Shown: in pieces, positions 5,616 through 39,417 of the stretch
Layout: each line of letters begins with the position of its first letter
Position numbering within the stretch: position 1 is the first letter of the stretch
Assembly (NCBI GenBank): GCA_963783305.1
Contig: CAWAMW010000016.1
Span: forward strand, 480,001-544,000
DNA from: an uncultured Gemmatimonadales bacterium
GTDB lineage: Bacteria > Gemmatimonadota > Gemmatimonadetes > Longimicrobiales > RSA9
DNA length: 64,000 bases
Direction of reading: 5' to 3'
Notes under the pieces: generated by a model
Seen by the model: only the letters and a program-made list of their open reading frames with translations
Database searches by the model: none
Told to the model about the DNA's origin: nothing
Position numbers and translations under genes: made by a program

Positions 5616-5631
5616 TGGCACGGGGCCTGCT
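5616..5631 (+). promoter_or_regulatory. sigma54 (RpoN) -24/-12 promoter
   Basis: TGGCACGGGGCCTGCT versus consensus TGGCACG-N4-TTGCW; exact GG-N10-GC spacing. Confidence 0.7.
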
Positions 5632-5682
5632 CCCATAGCGGTGTGATCAATCTGATTTCCCAGTATAACCGAGGAGGCTTAC

Positions 5683-5877
5683 ATGGCGACGGTCCCAGGA
5701 CCCGATCCGGACAAGCCCACGCCCATGCCAGGAGCGCCGGCCAAGGAACCGCCGCGGGAGGAGCCGGAGCGGTATGAGCCGGCGCCGCGTCGATCCGATG
5801 ACCCGGAGTTCGATCGGCCGGAGAAGTGGACGCCGGAGAAGGAAGAAGAGGATGTAGGGGCCCCGACCCCGATCTGA
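5683..5877 (+). CDS. small Pro/Glu-rich hypothetical protein (64 aa, probably disordered)
   Basis: Strong GAGGAGG RBS, upstream sigma54 motif, downstream terminator; fills the mpg-etfB gap. Confidence 0.65.
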   Translation: MATVPGPDPDKPTPMPGAPAKEPPREEPERYEPAPRRSDDPEFDRPEKWTPEKEEEDVGAPTPI

Positions 5878-5969
5878 CGATCGGTTCGGTGGAGCTACAG
5901 AGGTGCGGGCGCGCCGGGAGCAGCTCTCCTGAACCGGGTGCGCGGGCATCGGATCTCCGACCCCTGTTG

Positions 5970-5997
5970 GAAAAGGCGGCGCTCGCGCCGCCTTTTC
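5970..5997. terminator. intrinsic terminator, potentially bidirectional
   Basis: GAAAAGGCGGCG-CTCG-CGCCGCCTTTTC perfect inverted repeat. Confidence 0.75.
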
Positions 5998-6057
5998 TCT
6001 TGTCTGGCCACGGCCTACATTCCGGGCGAACGAGTACCCTGGACCAAGGAGTGAGCT

Positions 6058-6801
6058 GTGAGAACAGCAGTGTGCATAAAGCGGGTGCCGGACACGGAGG
6101 CGCGCGTGAAGGCGGCGGGCGACTCGGTGGACACGAGCGGAGCCAAGTTCATTGTGAGCCCGTATGACGAGTTTGCCATGGAGGCGGCGCTTCGGCTGAA
6201 GGAGGCCGTGGGCGAGGGAGAGACGGTGGCGATCTCGCTGGGCGGGAGCGAGGTGGGCGAGCAGCTTCGGAGCGCGCTGGCCATGGGCGCCGATCGCGCG
6301 ATCCGTCTGGATGGGCAGGGCGGCGTGGACGGCCTGGAAGTCGCGCGGGCGCTGGCGGCGGAGCTGGAGGGAGGGGAGTTCGATCTGATCCTGTTCGGCT
6401 CGAAGGCGGCGGACGACGACCAGCAGCAGGTGGGTCCGATGACGGCCGAGCTGCTGGGTCTGCCGTGCGTGACGGTAGTGGCGGAGGTCGCGGTGGAGGA
6501 AGGAAAGGTCGTCTGCCACCGTGAGGTGGAGGGTGGCACGGAGATCGTCGAGATAGAGATGCCGGCCGTGGTGACCATCACGAAGGGTCCGCACGAGCCG
6601 CGCTACCCGTCGCTGAAGGGGATCATGGCGGCGAAGAAGAAGCCGCTGGAGGAGAAGCCGGCGGAGGTCCGGGACGCGCGCATCAAGGTACGTGGGTATC
6701 GGGACCCCGAGGAGCGGCCGGCGGGGAAGATCGTGGGCGAAGGTCCGGACGCGGTTCCGGAGCTGGTTCGCCTGCTTCGTGACGAAGCCAAAGTCCTGTA
6801 G
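6058..6801 (+). CDS. etfB: electron transfer flavoprotein beta subunit
   Basis: VCIKRVPD, PYDEFAMEAAL, ALAMGADRA and EPRYPSLKGIMAAKKK motifs. Confidence 0.96.
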   Translation: MRTAVCIKRVPDTEARVKAAGDSVDTSGAKFIVSPYDEFAMEAALRLKEAVGEGETVAISLGGSEVGEQLRSALAMGADRAIRLDGQGGVDGLEVARALAAELEGGEFDLILFGSKAADDDQQQVGPMTAELLGLPCVTVVAEVAVEEGKVVCHREVEGGTEIVEIEMPAVVTITKGPHEPRYPSLKGIMAAKKKPLEEKPAEVRDARIKVRGYRDPEERPAGKIVGEGPDAVPELVRLLRDEAKVL

Positions 6802-6810
6802 GAGGCGAAC

Positions 6811-7797
6811 ATGGCGAATGTACTGGCAGTAGCGGAGACGCGGGATGGCGATCTGAAGCCGGTGTCACGGGAGGTGGTCACCGCGGCGCGCAAGGTCGCC
6901 GACGGGATCGGTGGCAACGTGGAGGTGCTGGTGGTGGGCGGGAGCGGCACGGCCGAGGCGGCCCGGTCGTTGAGCCGCTACGGCGCGGACCGCATCCTCA
7001 CGGTCGAGCACGACGACCTGGCGACGTATCAGCCGGAGGGGTACACCACCGTCATCGCCGAGCAGGCGAAGGCGGGCGATTACTACGCCGTGCTGTTCCC
7101 GGCCACGGCGGCGGGGCGTGACGTGGCGCCCCGGGTGGCGGCGCGGCTGGATGTCCCGCTGGCCACGGAGATCACCGGGCTCGAGATGGATGGCGACGAG
7201 ATGGTGGTGACTCGGCCGCTGTACGGCGGGAAGGTCTTCGCTGAGCTGACGCTGGACGCCACGCCCCGGATCGCCAGCCTGAGGGGCAACGTATTCCGGC
7301 CGGAAGAGAACCCGAGGGAAGCCACGGTCGAGTCAGTGGACGCCTCCGTGGACGCGGGCGCCTGGAAGGTGAAGGTGCGGGAGTTGAAGGAGTCCGCCGG
7401 TGACCGGCCGGACGTGGCCGAGGCTTCGACCGTGGTCAGCGGAGGCCGCGGTCTGAAGGAGGCGGAGAACTGGACGCTGATCGAGGAGCTGGCCGACGCC
7501 CTGGGCGATGGCGTGGGCCTCGGCGCGTCCCGCGCCGTGGTGGACGCCGGCTGGCGACCCCACTCCGAGCAGGTGGGCCAGACGGGCAAGATCGTGGCTC
7601 CACAGCTCTACTTCGCCATCGGGATCAGCGGCGCGATCCAGCACCTGGCGGGAATGCGTACCGCGGGAACGATCGTGGCCATCAACAAGGACCCGGACGC
7701 GCCCATCTTCAAGGTGGCCGACTACGGCATCGTGGGGGACGCGTTCGAGGTGGTGCCGAAGCTGACCGAGGAGATCCGGAGCAGGAGGCAGGAGTAG
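6811..7797 (+). CDS. etfA: electron transfer flavoprotein alpha subunit
   Basis: VVSGGRGL, GASRAVVDAGW, QVGQTGK and GISGAIQHLAGM motifs. Confidence 0.97.
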   Translation: MANVLAVAETRDGDLKPVSREVVTAARKVADGIGGNVEVLVVGGSGTAEAARSLSRYGADRILTVEHDDLATYQPEGYTTVIAEQAKAGDYYAVLFPATAAGRDVAPRVAARLDVPLATEITGLEMDGDEMVVTRPLYGGKVFAELTLDATPRIASLRGNVFRPEENPREATVESVDASVDAGAWKVKVRELKESAGDRPDVAEASTVVSGGRGLKEAENWTLIEELADALGDGVGLGASRAVVDAGWRPHSEQVGQTGKIVAPQLYFAIGISGAIQHLAGMRTAGTIVAINKDPDAPIFKVADYGIVGDAFEVVPKLTEEIRSRRQE

Positions 7798-7892
7798 GAG
7801 GCAGGAGTAGGAGGCAGGAGTAGGAGGCAGGAGTAGGAGGCAGGAGTAGGAGGCAGGAGGCATCTTACTCTTGCCTCCTACTCCTGCCTCCT
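7783..7892. repeat. 13-bp tandem repeat AGGAGGCAGGAGT (5 full copies plus 12/13) followed by two inverted copies
   Basis: Direct copies at 7783-7859; inverted ACTCTTGCCTCCT (7867-7879) and ACTCCTGCCTCCT (7880-7892). Confidence 0.95.
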
Positions 7893-7896
7893 AATC

Positions 7897-9567
7897 TTAC
7901 ATCTCCCGGTACTTCGGCCCGCTCCCGCCCTCCCGCGGCGTCCAGCGGGGCCCCAGCACGTCAGTGGCCTTGCAGTCGATGCAGTTGGGGGCGTTGATCA
8001 CGAGGTTGCCATCCTCGTCCTGCTCGTATACGCCGGCGGGGCAGAGGTGGACGTACAGCTCCGCCACCTCTGGCGGGACATCCTCCGCCGCGATCAGGTG
8101 GGGCGGAATGTCGTCGCGGGTCTGGTTGCCGGACTTGAACACCGCGTCCACCTTGCTGAAGGTCAGCGCTCCGTCCGGGGCGAACCCCGCGCCCCCCGGT
8201 CCACCAGGCGCGGCGCCGTCGGCCTTCTTGGGAGCGGCCGCGTCGGCTTCCATGTCGATGGTTCCCCCGGGGAACCGGCCGCCCGTCACCGTCATGAGCG
8301 CCGCCTTCACGCCACCCGTGTAGAACCCGTCCTTGAAGGCCGGCCGCATGTTCCGCGTCTTCCGCAGGTCGCTCAGGATGAACGATTCGTTCACGAGCGT
8401 GTCGTAGCGGGCGAGGGTGGCGGCGGACGTGTCATCCGCCCTGAGGGCCTCGTGGATCGCCCGGGCGGCGAAGATCCCCGACTGGACAGCGTAGTGGATC
8501 CCCTTCAGGGAGGGCACGTCCACGAACCCGGCGGCGTCCCCCAGGATCACGACGCCGTTCCCGCTCCGGCGGCCGGGAAGCGCGTGGAAGCCGCCCTCGG
8601 GGATGGTCTTGGCGCCCCACTCCAGCATCTCGCCGCCCTCGAGGTACTCGCGGAAGAGCGGGTGGGTCTTCATGCGCTGGAAGAGGACGTGCGGATCGAG
8701 GGTGGTGTCGTGATAATCGAGACCGACGACCAGCCCGATGGCCACGCGGTTCTCCGCGAGTGGGTACATGAAGCTGCCACCGAAAGCGTCGTTCGGGAGC
8801 GGCCAGCCCATGGTGTGGATGACGGCATCGAGCGGCTTCTTCGTCTCCCATACCTCCTTGACGCCGAGCGCGAAGATCTGGGGGTTCTCGGAGCCTACGC
8901 CCTGCCAGTCGAGGTACGCCTGGCTGAGCGGCCCGCGCGTGCCCTCGGCCAGCGCCGTGACCCGGGCGAGCACGTCTGTCGGGGGCATGTGCCCGGCGCC
9001 GGCGTTGCCCTCGCGGTCCAGTCCGGTGGCGACGGTGCGGACGCCGGCGATGCGGTCGTCATCGACGAGCATGGACTGGACGGCGAAGCCGGTGAAAATG
9101 TTGACGCCCGCGGCCTCCGCCTTCTCGCCCATCCAGCGAACCACCTCGGAGATGGAGGCGATGTGGTTGCCGTGGTTCCGCATGGGCGGCGGAGTGGGAA
9201 TCCGGGTGGAGCCGCCCTCGCGCAGGACGTAGACGCGCTCGTTGTCCACCCGTCCCCGGAATGGAAAGTCGTCCTCCGACAGGTCGGGGAAGAGCTCCCG
9301 GAAGGGGCCCGGTTTGATGACGGCTCCGGAGAGGTTGTGCTCGCCGAGCGACTCGGCCTTCTCGAGGACCGCGATCTCGAGGTCGTCCATGTCGTCATCG
9401 GCGGCCACGAGCCTGGCCAGCTCGATGGCGCACGCCAGCCCTGCGGGGCCCCCGCCGACGATGGCGACGTCCATGGGCACCGCCTCGTCGTCCGGCGCCT
9501 CCCGGAGGAGGAGCTGGTCCTTGGGCAGCGGCGGCTGGTACTTCAGCGGGACGATCTCGTGCGACAT
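7897..9567 (-). CDS. electron transfer flavoprotein-quinone oxidoreductase (ETF-QO)
   Basis: DVAIVGGGPAGLA, LAEGTRG, ALGVKEVWE, GWPL, GAKTIPEGG, KGIHYA, CPAGVYE, NCIDCK and EGGSGP motifs; adjacent to etfAB. Confidence 0.93.
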   Translation of the reverse strand: MSHEIVPLKYQPPLPKDQLLLREAPDDEAVPMDVAIVGGGPAGLACAIELARLVAADDDMDDLEIAVLEKAESLGEHNLSGAVIKPGPFRELFPDLSEDDFPFRGRVDNERVYVLREGGSTRIPTPPPMRNHGNHIASISEVVRWMGEKAEAAGVNIFTGFAVQSMLVDDDRIAGVRTVATGLDREGNAGAGHMPPTDVLARVTALAEGTRGPLSQAYLDWQGVGSENPQIFALGVKEVWETKKPLDAVIHTMGWPLPNDAFGGSFMYPLAENRVAIGLVVGLDYHDTTLDPHVLFQRMKTHPLFREYLEGGEMLEWGAKTIPEGGFHALPGRRSGNGVVILGDAAGFVDVPSLKGIHYAVQSGIFAARAIHEALRADDTSAATLARYDTLVNESFILSDLRKTRNMRPAFKDGFYTGGVKAALMTVTGGRFPGGTIDMEADAAAPKKADGAAPGGPGGAGFAPDGALTFSKVDAVFKSGNQTRDDIPPHLIAAEDVPPEVAELYVHLCPAGVYEQDEDGNLVINAPNCIDCKATDVLGPRWTPREGGSGPKYREM

Positions 9568-9679
9568 GGTCGGTCGGGATTCGGGAATCGGAGTCGGAAC
9601 TCGGTGTCGACGCCGGCATCGGCGTCCCGCGTATCTTCGGGCGCCGACGTGCGAGAATCAAGTGGACGCGCGGAGCCCG

Positions 9680-10981
9680 CTATCCGGGTAGTGCGTACTC
9701 GCCGACCGCGCGGTCGGGCGGGCCGAGGGCCATGGCGACGCCGCGCTCGCCCGGTTCCACGCCACGGCGACCCTCGGGCACGACGAAGAGCGCATCCGCC
9801 TTCGTCATGGAGGTCAGGATCCCGGAGCCCTGGGGGCCGGCTGGGCGCGCGCGGGGGAGCGGGTCGCCGGGCTCGAGGATCACGCGCTGGAAGTGGGTCT
9901 TGTCGGGCTTGGACGGGATCCGCTCCAGCGCCTCCACGGGGAAGACGGCGTTGTGGACCGCGATCCGGCCCAGCATGCGCCTGAGCGGCGGCCGCACCAG
10001 CACCATGAACGTGGCCAGGGCGGAGACGGGGTTGCCCGGGAGCCCCCAGACGGGAAGCGGACGCCGGCCGGGGCGGGGCAGAGAGCCCAGCGAGGCCGGG
10101 CTGCCCGGTCGCATGCGGATGCGCCAGAAGTCGGGGACAAAGCCCAGCGCTTCCAGCACGTCCTTCACGCGATCGTGCTCCCCCACGGAGGCGCCCGCGG
10201 AGGTGATCAGCATGTCCGCATCCAGTCCTGCCTCGACCCTTGCGCGGATGTCGGCGGGGTCGTCGCGCGCGATCCCGAGGAGCCTCGGAACGCACCCCAT
10301 GGCGGCCACGGCCCCCAGGAGCGAATAGCTGTTCGAGTTCACGATCTTCCGACCCGCTCGCACCTGCTCATACTCGTCGAGACCCGCCAGCTCGTCACCA
10401 TTGCTCAGGATGGCGACGACGGGGCGCCGGACCACGCGGGGGTGTCCCACCCCCACCGTCGCCAGCACTCCCATGGCCGCAGGGCCGATGGCGAGGCCCG
10501 CACCCAGGGCGCGCTCGCCCGCGCGGAGGTCCTCGCCGCGGCGGCGGATGTTCGATCCGGCGTCCCGGTCGCGGCGCACCGCCACCACCTCGGTTCCCGC
10601 GTCGGTGTGCTCCACCCGCACAACGGAGTCGGCCCCCTCCGGTGTAGGCGCGCCGGTCATGATGCGGGCCGCTTCGCCCGGGCCCAGGGCGCGGGAGGGG
10701 AAGCCGCCGGCGGGGATGTCATCGACGACGGTGAGCCGAACCGGCGCGTCGTCGCTCGCGCCGCGGATGTCCTCTGCCCGCGCCGCGTAGCCGTCCATGG
10801 CGCTGTTGTCCCACGGCGGCTGGTGGATGGGCGAGGCGACATGCTCGGCGAGAACCCGGCCGAGCGCCTCCTCCAGCGGCACCGACTCGGACTCGAGGGG
10901 CTCCACGGCCGCGAGACCTCGCTCCACCGCCTCACGGACGGAGAGCCAGTCGGGGGTGCGGTGGGACCAGTCGATCGTCAA
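9680..10981 (-). CDS. moeA: molybdopterin molybdotransferase (gephyrin-like)
   Basis: PPWDNSAMDGYA, IMTGAP, SNGDEL, SVGEHD and GLPGNPVS motifs. Confidence 0.95.
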   Translation of the reverse strand: MTIDWSHRTPDWLSVREAVERGLAAVEPLESESVPLEEALGRVLAEHVASPIHQPPWDNSAMDGYAARAEDIRGASDDAPVRLTVVDDIPAGGFPSRALGPGEAARIMTGAPTPEGADSVVRVEHTDAGTEVVAVRRDRDAGSNIRRRGEDLRAGERALGAGLAIGPAAMGVLATVGVGHPRVVRRPVVAILSNGDELAGLDEYEQVRAGRKIVNSNSYSLLGAVAAMGCVPRLLGIARDDPADIRARVEAGLDADMLITSAGASVGEHDRVKDVLEALGFVPDFWRIRMRPGSPASLGSLPRPGRRPLPVWGLPGNPVSALATFMVLVRPPLRRMLGRIAVHNAVFPVEALERIPSKPDKTHFQRVILEPGDPLPRARPAGPQGSGILTSMTKADALFVVPEGRRGVEPGERGVAMALGPPDRAVGEYALPG

Positions 10982-11631
10982 TTCGCCCCTCCCTCCGGCC
11001 GCACCAGCCTCTCGGCCCGATCCCGCTCCTCCGGCGTGTTCACGTTCATGAAGGCGCGCTCGGGATCGCAGATCGACTCCACAGCCTCGAGCGGCACCCG
11101 TCGCACGACCACGTGGTCATGGAATCCGATCATCCGGCGGTCGCCTTCTTCGAGGGCCAATTCGATGGCGGGCAGGCACCCGACGCCGTACGCCGCGAAC
11201 AGCGGCTCGATTCCCCGGCGGCCGCCGCTCTCCGGAACCACCACGTCAGGACGCGGCTCGCCGGAGGCGAAGGCCTCGTCCGCCAGCCGTCGCAGAAGAG
11301 GCACGCACGGGAAGGGCATGTCACAGGCCACCGCCAGGATCCCCGGACGCCCCTCATCGCGGGCGCGTGTGAGCGCCGTGTGGAGACCGCCGAGGGCGCC
11401 GAGTCCAGGACGCACGTCCGGGTACGCCGGCAGCGCCAGATCTCCGAAAAGCTCCGGCTCGTTGGCGGACAGGATCACATCGCTCACGACCTCCCGCAGC
11501 GCGCTCACCACCCGGTCGATGATTCGGGCCCCGCCCACTTCGGCCAGCGCCTTGGGCGACCCGTAGCGCCGGCTCTCGCCGCCCGCCAGCACCACACCGA
11601 GCGGTGTGGCCGCGGATTCAGACCCCGGCAT
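10978..11631 (-). CDS. mobA: molybdenum cofactor guanylyltransferase
   Basis: VLAGGESRRYGSPKAL, GALGGL, ACDMPF, EPLFAAY and NVNTPEE motifs; start placed at ATG 11631. Confidence 0.93.
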   Translation of the reverse strand: MPGSESAATPLGVVLAGGESRRYGSPKALAEVGGARIIDRVVSALREVVSDVILSANEPELFGDLALPAYPDVRPGLGALGGLHTALTRARDEGRPGILAVACDMPFPCVPLLRRLADEAFASGEPRPDVVVPESGGRRGIEPLFAAYGVGCLPAIELALEEGDRRMIGFHDHVVVRRVPLEAVESICDPERAFMNVNTPEERDRAERLVRPEGGAN

Positions 11632-12364
11632 CGAATACCCTCGCCTCCCTGCCCGCCGCGCGCGCCACCACCACCAGTCCTGCCGCTCGTGCGATCTCGA
11701 GGGCCATGGTGGTCGGCACGGACCGGCTCGCGATCCAGGCCAGGCGCGAGCGGGCCGCTTTCTCCGCAATCTCGGCGCTGATCCTCGCGGTGGTCACGAG
11801 TCCCAGCTCGGTCAGGTCGTCGCCCGCCAGGAGGGCGCCGCCAATGGCCTTGTCGACGGCGTTGTGCCGGCCGACCTCCTCGTGATCGTGGAGCAGCCGA
11901 GCCCCGTCACAGAGCGCGGCGGTGTGATGTCCACCCGTGGTCCGCCGCGATGGGGATCTTTCGAACAGCTCCCGGAACAGGTCGGGGAACGCCTCGATCG
12001 ACGGCGGCGCCCCCATCTCTACGGCGTCGCCGCTGGCGTGCGCGATGAGGTCGGGGCGGCAGTCCAGGACGAACCGAATGCCGCAGCCGTGCTCCCGCCT
12101 GTGCTCCCATTCACTGCGGCCCGCGGAAACGCCCGCCGCGGTGACGCGGGCGCGGATGCCGTGTATGCCGTCGGTCACGGGGATCTCGGTCACCTCCTCC
12201 AGGTCCTCGGGCGCGCGGAGGTACCCCATGGCGGCGAGCCTGCCGGCGCCCAGCGGCTCGAGGGCGGCGGGCGAGCAGGTCCAGGTAGCCACGGGCTCAT
12301 CATTCACCCAGAGGCGCACCGGCACCTCGGGCACGGCTTCGGTCGAGCGTTCGGTTCGGTCCAT
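11618..12364 (-). CDS. fdhD: formate dehydrogenase accessory sulfurtransferase FdhD
   Basis: TGGHHTAAL, EEVGRHNAVDKAIG, TARISAEIAEKA and SRSVPT motifs. Confidence 0.9.
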   Translation of the reverse strand: MDRTERSTEAVPEVPVRLWVNDEPVATWTCSPAALEPLGAGRLAAMGYLRAPEDLEEVTEIPVTDGIHGIRARVTAAGVSAGRSEWEHRREHGCGIRFVLDCRPDLIAHASGDAVEMGAPPSIEAFPDLFRELFERSPSRRTTGGHHTAALCDGARLLHDHEEVGRHNAVDKAIGGALLAGDDLTELGLVTTARISAEIAEKAARSRLAWIASRSVPTTMALEIARAAGLVVVARAAGREARVFDAGV

Positions 12365-12394
12365 GGGCGAGAATACGGCGATGTCGCGGTCGCC

Positions 12395-13507: not shown

Positions 13508-13524
13508 AGCCGACGCCCCCGGCG

Positions 13525-15412: not shown

Positions 15413-15492
15413 CGCACGAGCGCCCGGCAGGCGCCGGACTCGCACGAGCTTCCTGCAGGCGCCGGACTCGCACGAGCTTCCGGCAGGCGCCG
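15413..15492. repeat. 28-bp tandem direct repeat, about 3 copies (CGCACGAGCTTCCKGCAGGCGCCGGACT)
   Basis: Units at 15413-15440, 15441-15468 and 15469-15492 (partial). Confidence 0.9.
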
Positions 15493-15502: not shown

Positions 15503-15988
15503 TCAGTGTCGCTCGCCGCCCTCGATGCCCGTCTGCGTGGGACCCTCGGGCGGCGTGTAGGTCTTGCCTTCCTGGATCGCCGTCTGCGGATCGCGGGTGC
15601 CGTACATCTCGCCCGCGTCGTCGGGCTGGAGGTGCTCGGCGGTGTCAGTCGTGGTCTTGCCGCTCTCACCCAGCGCGGCGTTCGCGGCGACATCCTCGGC
15701 CCGGGCGTCGTCGGCGGCGTCCGCGCGCTGCGCACGGGCATTCGGGTCCACCACGACGTTGTTGTCGAAATCGGTGGCGCCTAGGAAGCTCAGGACCTGG
15801 TCGACGTGCTGTCGCTCGCCATCGGTCCCGACGCGACCTTCCACCGTGACGTGACCGTCCCGGACCTCCACGTCCACCGTATCCACGTTGAAGTCCGCGT
15901 CCTCGTCCAGCCGTTCGCGGATGAGCTCCTCGATGTCGCCGTCATCCAGCTGATCGAGGTTGATCGCGTTCTCGAAATCCCTGGCCAT
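15503..15988 (-). CDS. BON domain-containing protein (OsmY-like, very acidic)
   Basis: DGDIEELIRERL...VDVEVRDGHVTVEGRV BON signature; GGAGG RBS. Confidence 0.85.
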   Translation of the reverse strand: MARDFENAINLDQLDDGDIEELIRERLDEDADFNVDTVDVEVRDGHVTVEGRVGTDGERQHVDQVLSFLGATDFDNNVVVDPNARAQRADAADDARAEDVAANAALGESGKTTTDTAEHLQPDDAGEMYGTRDPQTAIQEGKTYTPPEGPTQTGIEGGERH

Positions 15989-16026: not shown

Positions 16027-16042
16027 TGCAACGGCGGTGCCG
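16027..16042 (-). promoter_or_regulatory. sigma54 (RpoN) -24/-12 promoter for the BON gene
   Basis: Minus strand CGGCACCGCCGTTGCA; exact GG-N10-GC spacing, about 40 nt before ATG. Confidence 0.72.
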
Positions 16043-26102: not shown

Positions 26103-26272
26103 GCAGCTCCGAAGTGAGCGATTCGCGGGTGTTTTCCTGTCCGATGGATTTGCAAGGTTGAGACCACGCCGGATAATGGCGGGACGAGCGCGGCCGCCGG
26201 GCCTCCCCCGGCGGCGGGGCTGCCGTTCCCCATTGCATCGCGGCGCTGGAGGACGTGGAATATATTGCCGTG

Positions 26273-28614: not shown

Positions 28615-30027
28615 CTAGTAGGTAGCCAGGTAGCGATCGATCTCCCACTCGTGGACCTGGGCGATGTAGTCCGCCCACTCCTGCTCCTTCGCGGCCACGA
28701 AGTGCTCGAACACGTGCTTGCCGAGCGTGTTCTTCATCAGCTCGCTCTTCTGAAAGACCTGAATCGCCTCCCCGAGGTCCTTCGGCAGCTCCTGGATCTT
28801 GTAGCGCCGCCGCTCCCGGACCGTCAGCTCGAAAATGTTCTTGTCCACCGGGTCCGGCGGATCGATCTCGTTCCGGATCCCGTCGAGGCCGGCCGCGAGC
28901 TGCACCGCCAGCGCCAGGTACGGGTTGGCGGCAGGGTCCGGGATCCGGAGCTCGATCCGTGTGCCGTTTCCACGACGCGCGGGGATCCGGACCATCGGGG
29001 ACCGGTTGTGATGCGACCACGCCACGTTCGTCGGCGCCTCGTACCCCGGCACCAGCCGCTTGAAGCTGTTGACCAGCGGGTTCGTCACCACGCAGAACGA
29101 CCGAGCGTGCTTCAGCAGCCCGCCCACGTAGTGCCGCATCACCTGCGACAGCCCATCCGCGTCGCTCTCGTCGTAAAACGCGGCTTTCCCGTCCTTGAAC
29201 AGCGACTGGTGCGTGTGCATCCCGGACCCGTTCTGGCCGAAAATGGGCTTCGGCATGAACGTGGCATGCAGGCCGTGCCGGACCGCCATGTTCTTGACCA
29301 CGAACTTGAACGTCGACAGATGGTCCGCCGTGGTCAGCGCGTCCTCGTACTTGAAGTCGATCTCGTGCTGACCCTGCGCCACCTCGTGGTGCGCCGCCTC
29401 CACCTCGAAGCCCATGGCGCTCAGCATGTTCACGATATCACGCCGCGCCACCTCCCCGAGGTCCACCGGGCCCAGGTCGAAGTAACCGCCCGCGTCATGT
29501 GTGAGGCGCGTCGGCGCCCCCTCCTCCGTCCGATGGAAGAGGAAGAACTCGGCCTCCACTCCCGCCATCATCTCGTACCCCATCTCCGCGGCGTCCGCGA
29601 TCACTCGCTTCAGCACGTTCCGCGGATCGCCGAGAAACGGCTTCTCGTCGGCCGTGAACACATCGCAGATCAGACGGCCCACGCGGTTGTCCTCGTCCCC
29701 CCACGGGTACACCGCGAACGTGTCGAAGTCCGGCCTCAGGATCATGTCCGATTCTTCGATCCGCACGAACCCCTCGATCGACGATCCATCGAACATGATG
29801 TCCCCGTCCAGCGCCTTCACGAACTGGCTCTCCGGCAGCTCCACATTCTTGATCTGCCCCGTGATGTCCGTAAACTGAAGACGCAGGAACCGCACGTTCG
29901 ACCGCTCCAGCATTCCCAGCACGTCCTTCTTCGACGCTCCCCGCGTACGGCGCGTCTCCGCGTCCGGCATGGGACGCACCTTGTGATCGGGGACCAGGTC
30001 CTTCTTGACTCGGTTCATCGGCTCCAT
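28615..30027 (-). CDS. glnA: glutamine synthetase type I
   Basis: MFDGSSIEGF, EAEFFLF, HHEVAQGQHEI, ATFMPKPIFGQNGSGMHTH, KRLVPGYEAP and NPYLA motifs. Confidence 0.97.
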   Translation of the reverse strand: MEPMNRVKKDLVPDHKVRPMPDAETRRTRGASKKDVLGMLERSNVRFLRLQFTDITGQIKNVELPESQFVKALDGDIMFDGSSIEGFVRIEESDMILRPDFDTFAVYPWGDEDNRVGRLICDVFTADEKPFLGDPRNVLKRVIADAAEMGYEMMAGVEAEFFLFHRTEEGAPTRLTHDAGGYFDLGPVDLGEVARRDIVNMLSAMGFEVEAAHHEVAQGQHEIDFKYEDALTTADHLSTFKFVVKNMAVRHGLHATFMPKPIFGQNGSGMHTHQSLFKDGKAAFYDESDADGLSQVMRHYVGGLLKHARSFCVVTNPLVNSFKRLVPGYEAPTNVAWSHHNRSPMVRIPARRGNGTRIELRIPDPAANPYLALAVQLAAGLDGIRNEIDPPDPVDKNIFELTVRERRRYKIQELPKDLGEAIQVFQKSELMKNTLGKHVFEHFVAAKEQEWADYIAQVHEWEIDRYLATY

Positions 30028-30102: not shown

Positions 30103-30131
30103 TAGATACCACGCCACCCGCACCCTGTCAA
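30103..30131 (-). promoter_or_regulatory. sigma70-type promoter of glnA
   Basis: TTGACA-17 nt-TATCTA on the minus strand. Confidence 0.55.
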
Positions 30132-31352: not shown

Positions 31353-31400
31353 GAGATCCCGGGACGGCCGGTCCGTGGGCGTCGCAGCCCGAACGGAAAC

Positions 31401-31440: not shown

Positions 31441-31463
31441 GAGCGCCAGCGGGGATCGGAGCG

Positions 31464-31859
31464 TCAGGCCGCGTCCGCCTCCTCTTCCTTCCGCTTGCAC
31501 TCGATGCAGTAGTGCGCGTGCGGGAGGGCATCGAGTCGCTCGAACTCGATGAGGTTGTCGCAGGTCTGGCAGAACCCGAAGGTCTCCGGCTCCCTGTAGA
31601 GACGGCGTAGCGCTTCCTCGATGCGATAGAGGTAGCGGCCCTCCTTGCTGGCGAACAGGAGCATCTTCTCCCGCTCCATGGCGTCCGTACCGAGATCCGC
31701 CATGTGATCCGAATACGAGTACAGGTCCGAATCGCCCTGTTCGGCGGAGAGCTTCGAGAGCTCGTCATAGCGGCCGAGGGAGCGAAGGGCCCTCTCGCGC
31801 TCTCGGAGGAGTCGCTTCTGTAGTTGCTCCAACTGCTTCTTCGTCAGCTTCTTGGCCAT
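31464..31859 (-). CDS. DksA/TraR C4-type zinc finger protein
   Basis: HMADLGTD coiled-coil tip, IEEALRRL, FGFCQTC...ERLDALP...CIECK. Confidence 0.9.
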   Translation of the reverse strand: MAKKLTKKQLEQLQKRLLRERERALRSLGRYDELSKLSAEQGDSDLYSYSDHMADLGTDAMEREKMLLFASKEGRYLYRIEEALRRLYREPETFGFCQTCDNLIEFERLDALPHAHYCIECKRKEEEADAA

Positions 31860-31947
31860 GATGCCCCGATTCGTCTGTCCGGCTGAGAGCGGAGACACCC
31901 AAGGGGAGCGGTCTCCTCCGTCGGGTGATGCCCGACCCAAACAACGA

Positions 31948-31976
31948 AATTTAGCGGTGGTGGCCGGATTATTCAA
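31948..31976 (-). promoter_or_regulatory. sigma70-type promoter of the DksA-family gene
   Basis: TTGAAT-17 nt-TAAATT. Confidence 0.55.
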
Positions 31977-32123
31977 CTCGCGGTACCGTCCTCGGGACCT
32001 GGCTCGGATGACGTTCCGCGAAGGGGATTTGTTCGCTGGCCGCGCTCGGCCCTATATTGCGAATCCTTCCTACCTTTAAGGAACCGAAAACCAAAGATCC
32101 CCAACCCCCCAGGAGGCTGCCTC

Positions 32124-34070
32124 ATGCCCATTGATGAACGCGCGCTGGAAGCACTGCTCGAGGAGTCCCGGACGTTTGAGCCTTCCGAGGAGTTCCGGCG
32201 GGAGGCCGTGGCGAACGATCCGGACATCTACGAGCGTGCGGCGGCGGATCCGGAGGCATTCTGGGCGGGGTGGGCGGAGAAGCTGGAGTGGTTCGAGAAG
32301 TGGGACCGCGTGCTGGAATGGGACGCGCCCCATGCACAGTGGTTCGTGGGCGGGAAGCTGAACGCCGCGCACAACTGCCTGGACCGTCACATCCGGGGGC
32401 CGAACCGGAACAAGGCGGCACTGGTGTGGGAGGGGGAGCCGGGCGACCAGCGGACGCTGACGTACTGGGACCTGCACCGTGAAGTGGGCAAGTTTGCGAA
32501 CGTGCTGAAGGGCCTGGGGGTGGGGAAAGGGGACCGGGTAGCGATCTACCTGCCGATGATCCCGGAAGCGGCCATTGCCATGCTGGCGTGCGCCCGGCTC
32601 GGCGCGGTTCATTCCGTGGTGTTCGGCGGCTTCAGCGCCGACAGTCTCCGGGACCGCATCATCGACGCGGAGGCGAAGGTGCTGGTCACGGCCGATGGGG
32701 GGTACCGCCGGGGCCGGGTGGTGCCGCTCAAGGACACCGCGGACAAGGCACTGCCGGAAACCCCCTCCATCGAGCACGTCGTGGTCGTGCGCCGCCGGCT
32801 GATCGCGCAGGACTCACAGGTCCACATGAAGAGCGGCCGGGACCACTGGTACCACCAGCTCATGCAGGAGGCCTCTGCCGAGTGCCCCGCAGAGCCCATG
32901 GACGCAGAGGACGTCCTGTTCATCCTCTACACCTCCGGCACCACCGGGCAGCCCAAGGGCGTGGTGCACACCACGGGCGGCTATATGACCCACGTCATGG
33001 CCACCAGCAAGCTCGTCTTCGACCTCAAGGACGATGACATGTACTGGTGCACCGCCGACGTGGGATGGATCACCGGCCACTCCTACATCCTCTACGGACC
33101 TCTGGCCAACGGGGCCACGGTGTTCATGTACGAGGGCGCACCCGACACCCCCGACCGCGGGCGGATGTGGAAGCTGGTGCAGAAGTACGGTGTGACGATC
33201 TTCTACACGGCGCCCACCGCGATCCGCGCGTTCATGCGGTGGGGCGGCGAGTGGCCCGAGGGGTACGATCTGTCGTCCCTGCGGCTCCTGGGAACGGTGG
33301 GGGAGCCCATCAACCCCGAGGCGTGGATGTGGTACCGGGAGCATATCGGCCGCTCGGAGCTGCCCATCGTCGACACGTGGTGGCAGACGGAGACGGGCGG
33401 GATCATGATTACGCCGCTCCCCGGGATCACGAAGACCAAGCCGGGAAGCGCCACGGTGCCGTTCCCGGGCGTGAGCGCCGAGCTGCTGGACAACCACGGC
33501 GCTTCGGTCCGCGCCGGGTACCTGGCCATCACGAAGCCCTGGCCGGGAATGATCCGGACGATCTGGGGCGACGATGAAAGATTCCGCGAGACGTACTGGT
33601 CACGCTGGGATGATATCTACTTCCCGGGTGATGGCGCGAAGCGCGATGAGGACGGCTATTTCTGGATCCTGGGCCGGGTGGACGACGTGCTGAACGTGGC
33701 GGGCCATCGGATCGGTACCATGGAGGTGGAGAGCGCGCTTGTGGACCACAAGTCCGTGGCCGAGGCGGCCGTGGTGGGGAAGGCGGACGAGCTCAAGGGG
33801 CAGGCGATCGCCGCGTTCGTCACGCTCAAGGAGGGGATCAAGCCGACGGCAACGCTGAAGGAGGAGCTGCGGGAGCACGTCTCGGAGAAGATTGGCGCGA
33901 TCGCGAAGCCTTCCTCGATCATCTTCACGGCGGAGCTGCCTAAGACCCGCTCGGGGAAGATCATGCGGCGGTTGCTCCAGGACATTGCGGAAGGGCGCGC
34001 AGTGGGAGATACGACGACGCTGGCGGACCCGTCCGTGGTGGAGATGCTCCAGAACCAGTACATCGAGTAG
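32124..34070 (+). CDS. acs: acetyl-CoA synthetase
   Basis: [45 protein letters not shown] and [11 protein letters not shown] motifs. Confidence 0.97.
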
Positions 34071-34085
34071 CGGACACGGCCGGCC

Positions 34086-35021
34086 TCAGTCGGGGCGGGC
34101 GAGGGTTACGGCAAACCCGGGCCTCGCTTCGGCCCAGCGCTCGATGGCGAGGCCGGCGCGAGCCAGCATGGCCTCGACCGAGGACCGGGTGTATTTGCAG
34201 CTGTCCTCCGTGTGCAGCGACTCGCCCGCCCCGAACTCGAACGTGCCGGCTTCGGGTACCGTCACTCGCTGCGGGCTTCGGGCCACCAGGTGCATCTCGA
34301 TCCGGTCGCGCTCCTCATTGTAGAATGCGTGGTGACGGAACGCGGAGAGATCGAAATCGGCGCCCAGCTCGCGGTTCAGGACGCTCAGCATGTTCAGGTT
34401 GAACGCGGCGGTGACTCCGCGGGCGTCGTTGTACGCCGACTCCAGGACCTCCCGCTCCTTCTGAAGGTCTACGCCGAGGAGGAACCGGTCCCGCTCGTCC
34501 ATCTCGGCTCGGATCCGCTGGAGTTGCGCCACCCCCTCCGCGGCCGGGAAGTTGCCGATGGTGCCGCCGAGGAGGGCGAACAGCGCCGGGCGGGGCAGGT
34601 CCCGCGGCACGCTGAATCCCACGGTCATGTCGGCGACCACCGGCCTGACCTCCAGCGTCGGGTACGTTTCCCGGAGCTGCGCGGCCACCCCCTCGAGGAA
34701 CTCGCCACTGATGTCGATGGGTACGTAGGTCGGGGTGCCCACCGTCTCGTCCATGGCGTCGAGGAGCGTGGTGGTTTTATCCGCGGCCCCCGCGCCGAGC
34801 TCCACCAGAGACGCCGCGCGGAGCGCCCTGATCCAGTCCGTTACGTGATCGTGCAGCAGCAGCCGCTCCGTGCGCGTGGGATAGTACTCCGGCTGGCGGG
34901 TGATCTCTTCGAACAGCTCCGACCCGCGGCGGTCGTAGAAGAACTTGGGCGACAACCGCTTCTGCGGACGAGAAAGCCCCTCCGCCACCTCCCGCAGCAT
35001 CCTGCGGTCGGGATCAGCCAT
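34086..35021 (-). CDS. egtD: L-histidine N-alpha-methyltransferase (hercynine synthase)
   Basis: PKFFYDRRGSELFEEIT, EYYPTRTE, ELGAG, GGTIGNF, AYND, RIEMHL and TEDSCKY motifs. Confidence 0.92.
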   Translation of the reverse strand: MADPDRRMLREVAEGLSRPQKRLSPKFFYDRRGSELFEEITRQPEYYPTRTERLLLHDHVTDWIRALRAASLVELGAGAADKTTTLLDAMDETVGTPTYVPIDISGEFLEGVAAQLRETYPTLEVRPVVADMTVGFSVPRDLPRPALFALLGGTIGNFPAAEGVAQLQRIRAEMDERDRFLLGVDLQKEREVLESAYNDARGVTAAFNLNMLSVLNRELGADFDLSAFRHHAFYNEERDRIEMHLVARSPQRVTVPEAGTFEFGAGESLHTEDSCKYTRSSVEAMLARAGLAIERWAEARPGFAVTLARPD

Positions 35022-35847
35022 GAGGGCCGTCCGTGAGCGGGTCGACGGTGCGGGGTGAGTCGGGGCGCTTCGCTTTCTTCGGCTTCGCCAGCTTGGGCGA
35101 GGCGGGGATGCCCAGCGCCACCTTTCCGCTCTCGACATCCCGCGTGGCCACGGCCATGGAGCCGAGCATGGCGTCCTCCTCGAGGTGCACGCCTCCGAGC
35201 ACGGTGGCGTGGTAGGTCACCCGGACGTCATCGCCAATGACGGTCGGCGTGCAATCGATCAGGCGGCCATCGGCGAGGGATTGGCTGTGGCTGAAAATGT
35301 TGACGAAGTCGGAGATGATGACGCGGCTCCCGATCCGGAGCCTGCCGCGGTCGTCCAGAAGGACGTTCCGGTGCACCACCACGTCGTCTCCCACCTCCAG
35401 GTTGTACCCGAAGCTGAACTTCACCTGGTGGAAGGCTTTGAAGTTCCGACCAACGGCGCCGAAGCAGTGTCGGGCCAGGACACGTCGGAGCGGCACCCCG
35501 AGCGCCACGTTGTGGCCCAGCGGGCTCCTGTCGAACATTTCCCAGAGCCACTGGAGCGGCTTGATGCGGGCGTACCGCTCAGTGTCGATCTCCGCGTAGT
35601 ACTCGGGCTCGAGGGTGACGTTGCGCGGATCCATCTGGAGCAGCGCCATCCGCAGGGCCGGGGACAGCTCGGCCGGGTCCGCGCTCGCGTACGCGGGATA
35701 GTAGAGTTGGGTCAGTACCTCACGCGTGAGGGCGCTGCGGTCCACGCCGTCATCCGACAGCCGGTCGTCCAACTCACCGGCCCAACGTCCATACTCCTTC
35801 GCTGTGGCCTCGGGAAGCGCAACCCGGCGCAGTGGCAGAAACTCCAT
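35014..35847 (-). CDS. left-handed beta-helix (hexapeptide repeat) acyltransferase
   Basis: Hexapeptide repeats (VGRNFK, VGDDVVV, IGSRVII, IGDDVRV); ALGIPA. Confidence 0.85.
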   Translation of the reverse strand: MEFLPLRRVALPEATAKEYGRWAGELDDRLSDDGVDRSALTREVLTQLYYPAYASADPAELSPALRMALLQMDPRNVTLEPEYYAEIDTERYARIKPLQWLWEMFDRSPLGHNVALGVPLRRVLARHCFGAVGRNFKAFHQVKFSFGYNLEVGDDVVVHRNVLLDDRGRLRIGSRVIISDFVNIFSHSQSLADGRLIDCTPTVIGDDVRVTYHATVLGGVHLEEDAMLGSMAVATRDVESGKVALGIPASPKLAKPKKAKRPDSPRTVDPLTDGPHG

Positions 35848-36131
35848 CGAACCCCCGGAACGGAAACGACGCCCCGGCGGCATCGTGTTCCCGAAGCTGG
35901 CGGCAGGTCCGGGGACTGTCAATTGCCGGTTCGGCGCTCCGGGCGCGCCGCCGGCCGCTATCGTCAAGCCCCTGGCGGTCCGTCATCAGCGCGAGCGGTG
36001 CGCCCGCGGTGACGTAAGGACCGTGGCGCGGGGTCGTCCTCAGAGCGTCCAGTCGGCAGCAGGATTACATTGGTTGAGGAGGAAACTCCACGTCGTGCGG
36101 CTACGTAGGTGGGAGGCAGAGAGGAGGGCGT

Positions 36132-36542
36132 ATGGAGGATGTGACGCGAAAGCGGATCATACGGATGCTGGAGCGGCTGCCGGAAGAGCAGCTGTATCAG
36201 GTCCTGGACTATATCGAGTTCATGGAGGTGAAGTATGCCCGTGAGACCGCGCGGAAGCCCGATGCGTTCCAGGAGTTTGCGGAGCGAGTGGAGGACCAGC
36301 TGCGCGTGCGGTCTCTGGCGCCCCGGGCGATGAAGGGTACCCTGCGGCTCATGAGCACGGCCGGGCGGGTCCTGGACGGGGTGCGGGACTTGGGGAAGGG
36401 GCTGAAGGAGCCGGCGGAGAATGGTCCGGGAGCGAAAACCACGGAAACGAAGGCGAGCGGCGGCGGAGGGGGGAAGGGCGACCCTGACCGGCGGTCTCAG
36501 CGGGGCGCAGAGGGGCCTTCGGGAAAGGGGGAGCCGGGGTGA
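36132..36542 (+). CDS. hypothetical protein with DUF2281-like N-terminus
   Basis: LERLPEEQLYQVLDYIEFM pattern; AGGAGG RBS. Confidence 0.7.
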   Translation: MEDVTRKRIIRMLERLPEEQLYQVLDYIEFMEVKYARETARKPDAFQEFAERVEDQLRVRSLAPRAMKGTLRLMSTAGRVLDGVRDLGKGLKEPAENGPGAKTTETKASGGGGGKGDPDRRSQRGAEGPSGKGEPG

Positions 36543-36552
36543 CGCGGTCGTC

Positions 36553-36582
36553 TTGACACCCTCGCGTGGGGTGCCGTAGGTT
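36553..36582 (+). promoter_or_regulatory. sigma70-type promoter of guaB
   Basis: TTGACA-18 nt-TAGGTT. Confidence 0.6.
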
Positions 36583-36682
36583 CCGCCATGGAACGAGGAA
36601 GTGGAGACAGGAACGCTGATACAACGCCCGCGGGGCCGACTCCGATCGGCTCGCGGGTGTCGTGCATCATGGGGGGATTTCG

Positions 36683-38149
36683 ATGACGGAATCGGGCGGG
36701 CGTATCCGGGGTGAAGGGCTGACATTCGACGATGTTCTGCTGGTGCCGCGCTACTCGCAGGTGCACCCACAGGACACGTCCGTGACGACGCAGCTGACGA
36801 AGGGAATCGAGCTGCGGATCCCGCTCGTTTCGGCCGCCATGGACACGGTGACCGAATCCCGGATGGCGATCGCCATTGCACGGGAGGGTGGGCTCGGGAT
36901 CGTGCACAAGAACATGCCGATCGACCGGCAGGCGGCGGAGGTGGACCGGGTCAAGCGGTCAGAGAGCGGGATGATCATGAACCCCATTACCCTCCGCCGG
37001 GACGGCCGCCTGTTGGATGCCATGGAGCTGATGGCGCAATTCTCCATCAGCGGTGTCCCGATCGTCGATGACGACAACCGGCTGGTGGGGATCATCACGA
37101 ACCGCGATCTACAGTTCGAGACGGACCTGGATCAGCCGATCCAGGACGTCATGACGCACGAGAACCTGGTGACGGCACCGGTGGGCACGTCGCTCAAGGA
37201 CGCGGAGCGGATCCTCCACCGCCACCGGATCGAGAAGCTGCCGGTGGTGGACGATCAGGGGTGCCTGCGAGGCCTGATCACGGTGAAGGACATATTCAAG
37301 CGTCGCAACTTCCCGAACGCCTGCAAGGATGAGCACGGGCGGCTGCGTGTGGGGGCGGCGATCGGTACCTCCCGGGCCGACCTCGATCGCGCCGGGGCGG
37401 TCCTCGACGCGGGGGTGGACCTCCTGGTCATCGACACGGCCCACGGACATTCCGAGGGGGTGCTGACGGCGCTGGCGCGTACGCGTGAGAAGTACCCGGA
37501 CGCGCAGCTGATGGCCGGCAACGTGGCGAGTGCCGGCGGCGCCCGGGCGCTGATCGAGCGCGGCGTGGACGCGGTGAAGGTCGGGGTCGGGCCGGGCAGC
37601 ATCTGCACGACGCGGGTTGTGACCGGCGTCGGCGTGCCCCAGCTCACGGCGATCATGGAGTCCGTGGCAGGGGCGGCCGGTGACGTTCCCGTGGTCGCCG
37701 ACGGTGGGATCCGGTACTCCGGGGACATCGTCAAGGCCATCGCCGCGGGGGCAAGCGCCGTGATGATGGGGTCGCTCCTGGCGGGAACCGAAGAGAGTCC
37801 GGGCGAGAGCTTCCTCCTCGAGGGCAGGCGCTACAAGACCGTTCGTGGAATGGGCTCCCTGTCCGCCATGGAGGAGGGATCGGCCGACCGCTATTTCCAG
37901 GAGGAGCGGGAGGCGCGGAAGTTTGTGCCGGAGGGGATCGAGGCCCGGGTCCCGTACAAGGGCTCGGCGTCGGATGTGATCTATCAGCTCGTGGGCGGTC
38001 TCCGAAGCGGCATGGGCTACTGCGGCTGTCCCGACATCGGCACCATGCAGACGGACGCGGAGTTCGTGAGGATCACGGGCGGTGGCCTGAGGGAGAGCCA
38101 TCCGCATGACGTGCAGATCACCCGCGAGGCCCCGAACTACCACCTGTAA
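36683..38149 (+). CDS. guaB: IMP dehydrogenase
   Basis: [22 protein letters not shown] pair, [21 protein letters not shown] and PEGIE motifs. Confidence 0.98.
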
Positions 38150-38231
38150 GCGGCAACGCCGCGAACGGCGGGCCAGGCGTGCGGTTCGCCGCATCTCCCG
38201 GGTCAAAAGAGGCGTAGAGCCCGGCGTCATC

Positions 38232-38247
38232 GGGCACGTCTCTTGCT
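38232..38247 (+). promoter_or_regulatory. sigma54 (RpoN) -24/-12 promoter for the aeRF1-like gene
   Basis: GGGCACGTCTCTTGCT; exact GG-N10-GC spacing, 45 nt before ATG. Confidence 0.75.
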
Positions 38248-38292
38248 CCCTTTTCCGGTACTCGTCGACACTTCCACTTCGACATACCGCTC

Positions 38293-39417
38293 ATGATCTC
38301 ACGTGACCAGATCCAAGCGCTGATAGAGCGTCCGGCCAATGGCGCCAACGTGCTGTCAGCGTTCCTTGACATGTCCGTGAACTCGGACAACAAGCGCACC
38401 TACCAGATCTTCCTGAACAAGGAGAAGGCGGGTTTCGCCGAGCTGGCCAGCGACCGGGAAGGCCACCACCGGGAGGAGGTGGGCGCCGCCTTCGCTCGGC
38501 TGGAAGACTGGCTCGATGCCAACTACGACGAATCCAAGAAGGGCGTTGCGTTCTTCACCTCGCTCGATGGTGATTGGGCCGAGGCGCACCAGCTCTCCGT
38601 GCCGGTGCCGAACCGGCTGACGTTGGGCGACCGTCCCATCGTAGGACCCCTCGTCGAGATCCTGGAGCGCTACCACCACCACGGGGTCGTCGTGGTGGAT
38701 CGCGAGCACCTCCGTCTCCTCAGCATGTTCCTGGATCAGACGCTCCACGAGCAGGCGGTCGAGACCGATCCGTACCCCACCGCCCACGACGTGAAGCGGG
38801 GTGGGTTCTCCGCCAAGGACTTCCAGGCGCGTAAGGAAGAAGAGACGCGGCACTTCTTCAAGGAATTCGCCACCGAACTGGAGGACTTCGTCCGACGGTA
38901 TCGACCCGACGACCTGATTATGCTCGGCACACCCGAGAACGTGAAGAAGTTTACGGACTTCGTGCCGTCGTCGATCCAGGAGATGATCGTGCACACCGAC
39001 CGCATTCAGGTCGATGCCACTGCGGCGGAAATCCGGCAGAAGCTGGCGCCGGTCTTCGAGCGCCAGCTCACCCAGGAAGAGGCGCAGGCGGTGGACCTGC
39101 TCCGCGATCGCGTAAAGGAGTCGCACATGGCGGTGTCGGGGCTCGACGATACGCTCGAGCAGCTCCAGGAGGGCAAGCTCCAGGTGCTCGTTATCGGACG
39201 CGGCCTCTCGGTGCGCGGCGGATCCTGCAGCAAGTGCGGCTTCGTGCTCGCCCGTACTTCCGGCGACTGCCCCTACTGCGGCGGGGCCGTCGAAAATTCG
39301 CTCGATCTCGGAGAGGAAATCGTCCGCATCGCCGAGGATAAGAGCGTCTCGATCGAGTTCGTGGAGCGATCGGCGGTCGAGGACCTCGGAGGCGTGGGAG
39401 GCCTGCTCCGCTTCTGA
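38293..39417 (+). CDS. bacterial archaeo-eukaryotic release factor 1 homolog (baeRF10-like) with zinc ribbon
   Basis: VLSAFLD, KGVAFF, VVVDREHLRL, GGFS-x-x-x-FQ at the GGQ loop, LQEGKLQVL, CSKCG...CPYCG, C-terminal LGGVGGLLRF. Confidence 0.85.
   Translation: MISRDQIQALIERPANGANVLSAFLDMSVNSDNKRTYQIFLNKEKAGFAELASDREGHHREEVGAAFARLEDWLDANYDESKKGVAFFTSLDGDWAEAHQLSVPVPNRLTLGDRPIVGPLVEILERYHHHGVVVVDREHLRLLSMFLDQTLHEQAVETDPYPTAHDVKRGGFSAKDFQARKEEETRHFFKEFATELEDFVRRYRPDDLIMLGTPENVKKFTDFVPSSIQEMIVHTDRIQVDATAAEIRQKLAPVFERQLTQEEAQAVDLLRDRVKESHMAVSGLDDTLEQLQEGKLQVLVIGRGLSVRGGSCSKCGFVLARTSGDCPYCGGAVENSLDLGEEIVRIAEDKSVSIEFVERSAVEDLGGVGGLLRF

Follow-up and report, generated by a model that had tools for sequence, protein, structure and literature searches.

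Predicted sigma54-type promoters upstream of stress-related genes, including a Balon-like gene, in a member of the Longimicrobiales

The stretch of DNA examined here, referred to throughout as the window, comprises 64,000 nucleotides (nt) from an uncultured Gemmatimonadales bacterium of the order Longimicrobiales (assembly GCA_963783305.1, contig CAWAMW010000016.1, positions 480,001 to 544,000). Three unlinked genes within it, encoding a small Pro/Glu-rich protein, a BON-domain protein and a protein related to the ribosome hibernation factor Balon, are each preceded by an element resembling the -24/-12 promoters read by the alternative sigma factor sigma54 (RpoN). The initial annotation took these elements for a candidate stress and ribosome-hibernation regulon, in which RpoN would serve stress and dormancy rather than nitrogen assimilation. 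We have followed the elements through the whole genome and its relatives, where they appear to belong to a large set of predicted promoters that likely includes a block of stress genes.

All three elements were found at the positions and on the strands originally described, with exact GG-N10-GC spacing, and the start codons lie 52, 39 and 46 nt past the motif ends, in the order of Table 1. The small protein is likely disordered, judging from its composition. The element of the BON gene lies about 20 nt beyond the stop of an upstream outer-membrane-protein gene, and just 3′ of the BON gene there is a 28-bp tandem repeat (window 15413-15492, 2.9 copies, 92% match). Sigma70-like elements of the form TTGnnn-17/18-TAnnnT/A are present, again as first described, before the genes for an acyl-CoA ligase, glnA, fur/perR, dksA and guaB; the same inspection found none before any of the three target genes.

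Table 1. Window coordinates of the sigma54-type elements, their genes and the features used for comparison
Feature	Position	Strand	Remarks
Sigma54-type -24/-12 element	5616..5631	+	GG 5617-5618, GC 5629-5630; predicted start site ~5642
64-aa Pro/Glu-rich protein	5683..5877	+	without Pfam match
-24/-12 element of BON gene	16027..16042	-	predicted start site ~16016
161-aa single-BON-domain protein, acidic tail	15503..15988	-	PF04972 E=7e-8
-24/-12 element, guaB/Balon-like gene interval	38232..38247	+	predicted start site ~38258
374-aa Balon-like protein (baeRF_family10, PF18854)	38293..39417	+	predicted ribosome hibernation factor
guaB (IMPDH), neighbour upstream of Balon-like gene	36683..38149	+	PF00478
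Sigma70-like guaB promoter TTGACA-18-TAGGTT	36553..36582	+	motif inspection
glnA, type I glutamine synthetase	28615..30018	-	TIGR00653 above cut-off; negative control without sigma54 site
Sigma70-like glnA promoter TTGACA-17-TATCTA	30103..30131	-	motif inspection

The genome (G000; 4.35 Mb, 69% GC, 96% complete) yielded 3,861 genes with a purpose-written caller, some starts being probably wrong. The exact pattern of the initial annotation has 20 matches genome-wide, three of them inside the window, and 22 of the 30 matches to a looser GGCAY form fall outside called genes. The genome-wide scan with an RpoN matrix that had been suggested revealed an excess over shuffled DNA. The matrix was seeded with 19 sites, none of them from the window, and settled on the consensus GGMACG-N4-TTGCMC. 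In held-out scoring, with training on half of the contigs and testing on the other half, the 2,312 upstream regions included 146 with a site of at least 10 bits, whereas dinucleotide shuffles gave 20 (96 against 9 at ≥12 bits, and 207 against 47 at ≥8 bits). Because of this excess, we predict roughly 125-200 promoters, and at least about 125. Native spacing gave 122 regions, compared with 8-14 when the spacer was shifted by 1-4 nt. Tandem gaps held 53 sense and 3 antisense sites and convergent gaps none, and the site density in coding DNA was 0.4-0.8 per 100 kb (compared with 28). Within the window, the element at 5616 is the weakest of the three (10.6 bits; 14.1 held-out), the BON site scoring 17.2 (20.3 held-out) and the Balon-like site 16.5 (17.4 held-out). 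The idea that the window is a special cluster of sites was rejected, as two of its 41 upstream regions reach 12 bits, which is the genome-wide rate (p=0.61).

Could such motifs be read by a factor other than RpoN, as a sigma70 -35 box (TTGCMC), an EcfG-type GGAAC box or a repressor site, or be chance products of GC-rich DNA? About 38% of the sites do have GGAAC-like starts, and the textbook T at -26 is found in only about 29%. However, TAnnnT occurs at any offset downstream in only 0-1 of 122 sites, and a reading as sigma70 -35 boxes was rejected for want of a -10 box. The EcfG-type reading was likewise rejected: GGAAC-N16-SGTT is not enriched (9, against 2-8 at neighbouring spacings), whereas GGAAC-N5-TTGC is (26, against 2-3). 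The exact spacing and the strand bias are in keeping with RpoN, as is the presence of sites ahead of pilin and flagellar operons, and we find a non-RpoN origin hardly credible. The genome also contains, as anticipated, a single rpoN gene with AID, CBD and DBD domains and 14 sigma54 activators, the signature motif being GAFTGA or GSFTGA in ten and GAFTDA in four. On this evidence we are highly confident that the -24/-12 motifs represent real sigma54 promoters.

The initial annotation proposed to check whether the motifs are conserved before orthologous genes. As the relatives are not independent, the counts that follow are footprints rather than p-values; some include genomes flagged as unpublished (G020, G021, G024, G038 and G116), on which alone no claim rests. 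Conservation was seen for the Balon-like gene and the 64-aa gene, and for the BON gene in close relatives but not in distant ones. Orthologues of the Balon-like gene have a GG-N8-TTGC core 53-121 nt upstream at 29 of 29 loci, with diverging flanks; 24 of these reach 10 bits, and none has a site on the opposite strand. Many leaders of this gene (window 38248-38292 and loci L006-L034) appear by eye to be without a Shine-Dalgarno sequence and have C-rich stretches before the ATG. The 64-aa gene has orthologues in 14 of 24 genomes of the same family and in none of 16 others; its element is present at exact spacing in 15 of 15 loci (nine at ≥10 bits), including loci that have a different gene upstream. 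Before BON orthologues, six of the seven closest loci with upstream DNA reach 10 bits and the seventh has 8.7 bits in the same place. For csbD, 13 of 19 loci have a site of at least 10 bits.

Targets could be annotated for 144 of the 162 regions with sites of at least 10 bits, the other 18 lying outside the fetched regions. The families YciF, YtxH, BON, YqjE, GlsB/YeaQ, WrbA and PRC are targets of stress responses of the RpoS/SigB type, and YciF and YtxH are stress-induced in other bacteria. Here, the highest-scoring site of all precedes a DUF892/YciF gene, and further sites precede genes for LEA_2, a YqjE-type holin, an OsmC-like protein, CsbD, YtxH, PRC, DUF1206, Transgly_assoc, WrbA, two AI-2E transporters and the Balon-like protein, as well as both BON genes that exceed the family cut-off. 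Ten hallmark stress families account for 11 of 144 targets, compared with 0 of 150 random genes and 0 of 150 small genes from the same regions, all 300 being without the motif (p=3e-6, for a list compiled post hoc, after the targets were seen). Two of the families, csbD and osmC, are also general-stress targets of EcfG (PMC7083833). Since stress genes carry motifs that are conserved in relatives, sigma54 likely runs a stress programme, and we hold with good confidence that the predicted regulon includes a general-stress block.

The set is nevertheless neither small nor confined to stress and hibernation. It would comprise at least about 125 promoters, including those of the only dnaK gene, grpE, groES, ftsH and degP; of L,D-transpeptidases, lytic transglycosylases and a penicillin-binding protein; of pilin, PEP-CTERM and POTRA genes; of the first genes of two flagellar operons, one of them continuing to fliA; of rpsU; of two extracytoplasmic function (ECF) sigma factors; and of 50 proteins without a Pfam hit, many of them small and charged.

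Several observations weigh against a general stress programme. Hallmark stress genes are only 11 of the 144 annotated targets, and a wider hallmark list gives 14 of 144 against 6 of 150 (p=0.06). HPF was rejected as a target: its gene, which is operon-internal, has no site in this genome, nor has any of 19 scored loci (of 27, eight without a tblastn hit being left out). Sites are also absent from the single ferritin/Dps-family gene (0/1), the Usp genes (0/6) and all three Ku genes of this genome; Ku was rejected as a conserved target, with a site in only 4 of 30 loci. Hsp20 (5.5 bits), MscS (1.4 bits) and fasciclin genes are without sites, as are eight of the nine called OsmC-like genes as regards a direct site, while two of the three csbD copies, like ligD and treT, have weak sites only, at the usual distance. 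No catalase (PF00199) was found in the genome. A general stress response might be expected to cover non-homologous end joining, catalase, Dps, MscS and Usp, and this set was not covered. Among the genes named for testing in the initial annotation, BON, one CsbD and baeRF carry sites, but HPF and ferritin/Dps do not. The BON element is present in 0 of 21 more distant orthologous loci. For yciF, a site is present in only 3 of 8 loci of family f5 and in 1 of 17 of family f4 (our labels for families within the phylum run from f1 to f5).

As regards nitrogen, the absence of a sigma54 site before glnA was confirmed in the window and extends to 0 of 15 orthologous loci (of 24, nine without a 5′ end or with distant paralogues being left out). 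Both P-II-like genes lack a site, and no ammonium transporter (Amt) was found in the genome. The proposal that RpoN serves stress and dormancy instead of nitrogen assimilation stands in part: hallmark stress genes are over-represented and glnA and the P-II genes lack sites, but stress induction and dormancy are conjectural, HPF, Usp and ferritin lie outside the set, and the set is a broad 'exterior' one.

Of the 22 sigma70-family hits, three are short and RpoD-like, two resemble FliA and about 17 are of ECF size, with no SigB/SigF-type factor among them. The three RpoD-like factors (286-297 aa; G000:C2:647973, C16:652368 and C2:663148) score below the RpoS, RpoH and SigB cut-offs, and no long RpoD is among the hits. 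A further point against RpoN as the stress factor is that two spare RpoD-like factors could run a parallel group 2 stress programme. A SigB-like candidate at C16:349384 was rejected, as its sequence suggests a second FliA-like factor. Genes for an RsbV-like STAS protein, an RsbW-like kinase and a 526-aa open reading frame lie behind a 12.8-bit site (G000:C11:100913-103335; L110:9834 onwards); such partner-switch genes are present although no SigB/SigF-type sigma factor was found.

Sigma54 promoters depend on activators, and one of the 14 (G000:C15:18711-20054) stands apart. Its receiver domain and its Walker and GAFTGA motifs are intact, and it alone falls below the cut-off for the HTH_8 helix-turn-helix (HTH) domain (14.8 bits against 22, the others scoring 27.8-57), the match covering just positions 2-29 of 42. 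PF02954 is annotated for 7 of the 120 activator homologues listed. In 42 orthologous loci (including L307, added from a separate set) the TLY recognition-helix motif is never found, and three of the proteins stop right after the AAA+ lid, with the HTH wholly gone. The gene order is treT, pgi, aminotransferase, sensor-less HisKA protein, activator, ytxH and yihY; of the 42 loci, all have ytxH after the activator, 38 have yihY there too, and 37 have the HisKA protein before it. The H-box of this partner is kept in 29 of 29 orthologues and its G1 box in only 16, which suggests a phosphotransferase. In ten loci a site of 8.5-20 bits lies 830-900 nt before the activator, that is, ahead of the HisKA gene, where it would form a possible feedback loop; a 7.6-bit hit within the HisKA gene itself, being coding sequence, was set aside. 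What is new is an activator with a degenerate or deleted HTH beside ytxH, usually behind a sensor-less phosphotransfer-like protein.

In an alternative arrangement, RpoN would be a near-constitutive second sigma factor with an always-on activator, so that its targets would not respond to stress, a group 2 RpoD-like or ECF factor doing the stress switching. The presence of the only dnaK gene, grpE, ftsH, the penicillin-binding protein and rpsU among the targets would suit it, as would the three short RpoD-like and about 17 ECF factors, two of the latter behind sites, and the position of Usp, Ku, ferritin and HPF outside the set. The activator keeps its receiver domain and a dedicated H-box partner, however, and csbD (PMC7083833) and homologues of Balon (PMC10901736) are stress-induced elsewhere; we regard such an arrangement as quite improbable.

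A stronger competitor is an ordinary, large 'exterior' regulon, each target group having its own enhancer-bound activator and the stress genes forming a minor block without a master. Many targets (cell-wall, pilin, PEP-CTERM, POTRA and chaperone genes and the FliL operon) are of this type and match the described trend towards envelope, motility and chaperone functions (PMC3162934), and known regulons of Desulfovibrio and Geobacter comprise 87-108 promoters (PMC4641369). The HTH is kept in the other 13 of 14 activators, some of which adjoin pilin, flagellar or Flp genes. On the other hand, the hallmark stress targets are scattered, with little free upstream DNA: 35 of 56 sites in tandem contexts have less than 80 nt of non-coding DNA ahead of them, and among 57,763 hexamers and dyads no common upstream motif rose above the null (best p 1e-5, the same as for random subsets). 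Little upstream DNA and no common motif fit the expectation for activation from solution. Moreover, in 38-42 of 42 loci ytxH-yihY accompany the one activator whose HTH has decayed. We judge an ordinary regulon to be unlikely, and lean slightly towards this activator being the master switch of the predicted regulon.

The distribution of the activator is instructive in both directions. It is present in 33 of 36 genomes of f1 and 12 of 12 of f3, in 0 of 12 of f2, and in 11 of 24 of f5 and 0 of 42 of f4. Motif counts against a reversed control are 324/90 in f1, 82/30 in f3 and 20/22 in f2, so that within the order the activator co-occurs with an excess of the motif; no Balon-like orthologue, BON orthologue, CsbD or YciF was obtained from f2. 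A phylum-wide excess of the exact pattern was not seen in f4 (73 against 63, 42 genomes) or f5 (54 against 56, 24 genomes). As counter-evidence, many activators have been lost from f2 (3 and 6, compared with 14-15), so co-occurrence does not single out the HTH-degenerate one; in the 11 f5 genomes that possess it, the exact pattern is not in excess (22 against 22); the degenerate HTH may still bind DNA; and in Myxococcus enhancers can sit inside genes (PMC9765219).

Taking these lines together, we think it probable that RpoN runs both envelope and motility genes and a general stress programme, probably via one conserved activator that would be enhancer-independent. In such a scheme, RpoN holoenzyme would be poised in closed complexes at the -24/-12 sites. 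Stress signals from kinases would reach the receiver of the activator by way of the sensor-less HisKA protein, and the activator, once phosphorylated, would act from solution to open many promoters, in the manner of CtcC, FlgR or DctD250. CsbD, YciF, YtxH, BON, LEA, WrbA, DnaK and the Balon-like factor would then be produced, the last of these parking ribosomes, while HTH-intact activators would likely serve pilin, flagellar and other local promoters. Induction of the targets by stress, and any role of theirs in dormancy, are putative.

The Balon-like protein was described in the initial annotation as aeRF1-like and related to Balon, and Balon-family proteins are indeed its closest matches by sequence and fold. 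Its sole hits among PDB sequences are MSMEG_1130 and Rv2629 (best E=5.6e-15), identity to Balon-family proteins being about 22%. The predicted model (predicted local distance difference test score, pLDDT, 88) shows an aeRF1-like fold of three domains and has a template modelling (TM) score of 0.84 to MSMEG_1130 and 0.70-0.74 to Balon and Rv2629, against at most 0.54 to aRF1/eRF1, TM values being affected by domain motion. GGF replaces GGQ and there is no NIKS; Balon too is without GGQ and NIKS, and its homologues are stress-induced (PMC10901736). Curated Balon-family cut-offs (NCBIfam) are missed (94 against 480, 73 against 320 and 65 against 330 bits). The protein shares sequence, fold and a stress-linked context with MSMEG_1130, Rv2629 and P. 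urativorans Balon (PMC10901736), but its gene lies behind a sigma54-type site, and it has no HP dipeptide and a C-terminal CxxC...CxxC. It likely works like Balon, family membership being putative. With HPF outside the motif set, a single predicted hibernation gene does not amount to a hibernation regulon. The HPF gene (G000:C7:236269) is not beside rpoN and precedes an HPr kinase gene; PF02482 (HPF) had no match in six of six f3 genomes searched, all of which have the Balon-like gene.

General stress responses are run by the sigma70-family factors RpoS, SigB and EcfG, and sigma54 is viewed as a set of local, enhancer-gated switches. The predicted system shares with the RpoS, SigB and EcfG-NepR-PhyR responses its target families, many small proteins of unassigned function and two-component input, but its promoter is of the sigma54 type, which needs an AAA+ activator, and not a sigma70-family -35/-10 promoter. 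The EcfG targets ku, mscS and catalase (PMC7083833) are outside, weak or missing here. With the 'exterior' sigma54 regulons of Desulfovibrio, Geobacter and other phyla (PMC4641369, PMC3162934, PMC12316311) it has in common GG-N10-GC promoters, large size, many activators, and envelope, pilus, flagellar and chaperone targets; it differs in that stress hallmark genes are directly targeted and glnA is not, and in a consensus without the -26 T that often ends in TTGCCC. The main text of PMC12316311 makes no mention of Gemmatimonad*, CsbD, OsmY or hibernation, although its aRpoNDB tables could list relevant predictions. In open-licence literature, searched without supplements, we came across no paper that deals with RpoN regulation in Gemmatimonadota or with CsbD, YciF, YtxH or Balon genes under sigma54.

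The activator itself resembles Group 5 activators, a class lacking the DNA-binding domain, namely Chlamydia CtcC, Helicobacter FlgR and the engineered DctD250, in its receiver, its AAA+ domain with GAFTGA and the possible opening of many promoters from solution, which is documented for CtcC and FlgR (PMC7175178, PMC7482065) and for DctD250 (PMC3844500); in Chlamydia, CtcC drives conversion to the resistant form (PMC7175178, PMC7482065). Unlike these, most orthologues here still have the residue of a degraded HTH (lost from 3 of 42), and the activator coexists with 13 normal ones and is partnered by a sensor-less HisKA protein that is often without ATP-binding boxes. In Myxococcus, the starvation activator Nla28 has been tied to general stress; it recognizes 8-bp repeats, and most of its promoters lie inside genes (PMC9765219), whereas the sites here are intergenic and no repeat motif emerged.

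If this reading is true, stress genes and a Balon-like factor wired straight to sigma54 would constitute a new architecture of stress control in a barely studied phylum. More tentatively, and at somewhat less than even chances in our estimation, sigma54 itself would be the general-stress factor of the Longimicrobiales, a fourth type of bacterial stress switch next to RpoS, SigB and EcfG, 125-200 promoters being released together by a single enhancer-free activator that receives phosphate from many kinases via a sensor-less phosphotransferase, and inducing a Balon-type factor. The analysis points to a regulator module open to experiment (HisKA protein, activator, ytxH and yihY) and provides, besides a promoter matrix, about 50 unannotated candidate stress proteins. 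Among the orthologues the HTH ranges from decayed to deleted, a natural series that is useful for studies of activation from solution.

Some minor observations may be added. The groES gene has a perfect CIRCE plus a -24/-12 site, and the only dnaK gene a near-consensus -24/-12 site (groES/dnaK loci G000:C7:176632 and C15:219768); because both carry such sites, heat-shock control may also pass through RpoN. Two borderline sites lie in the window, one of 10.4 bits at 26151-26165 (-), before a D-Ala-D-Ala carboxypeptidase gene (S13), and one of 10.3 bits near 54359 (-), without the TGC core, before an Mfd-like gene. Finally, two OsmC-family matches (G000:C15:305881 and C16:684387) contain one in-frame TGA each, and are possible selenoproteins or pseudogenes.

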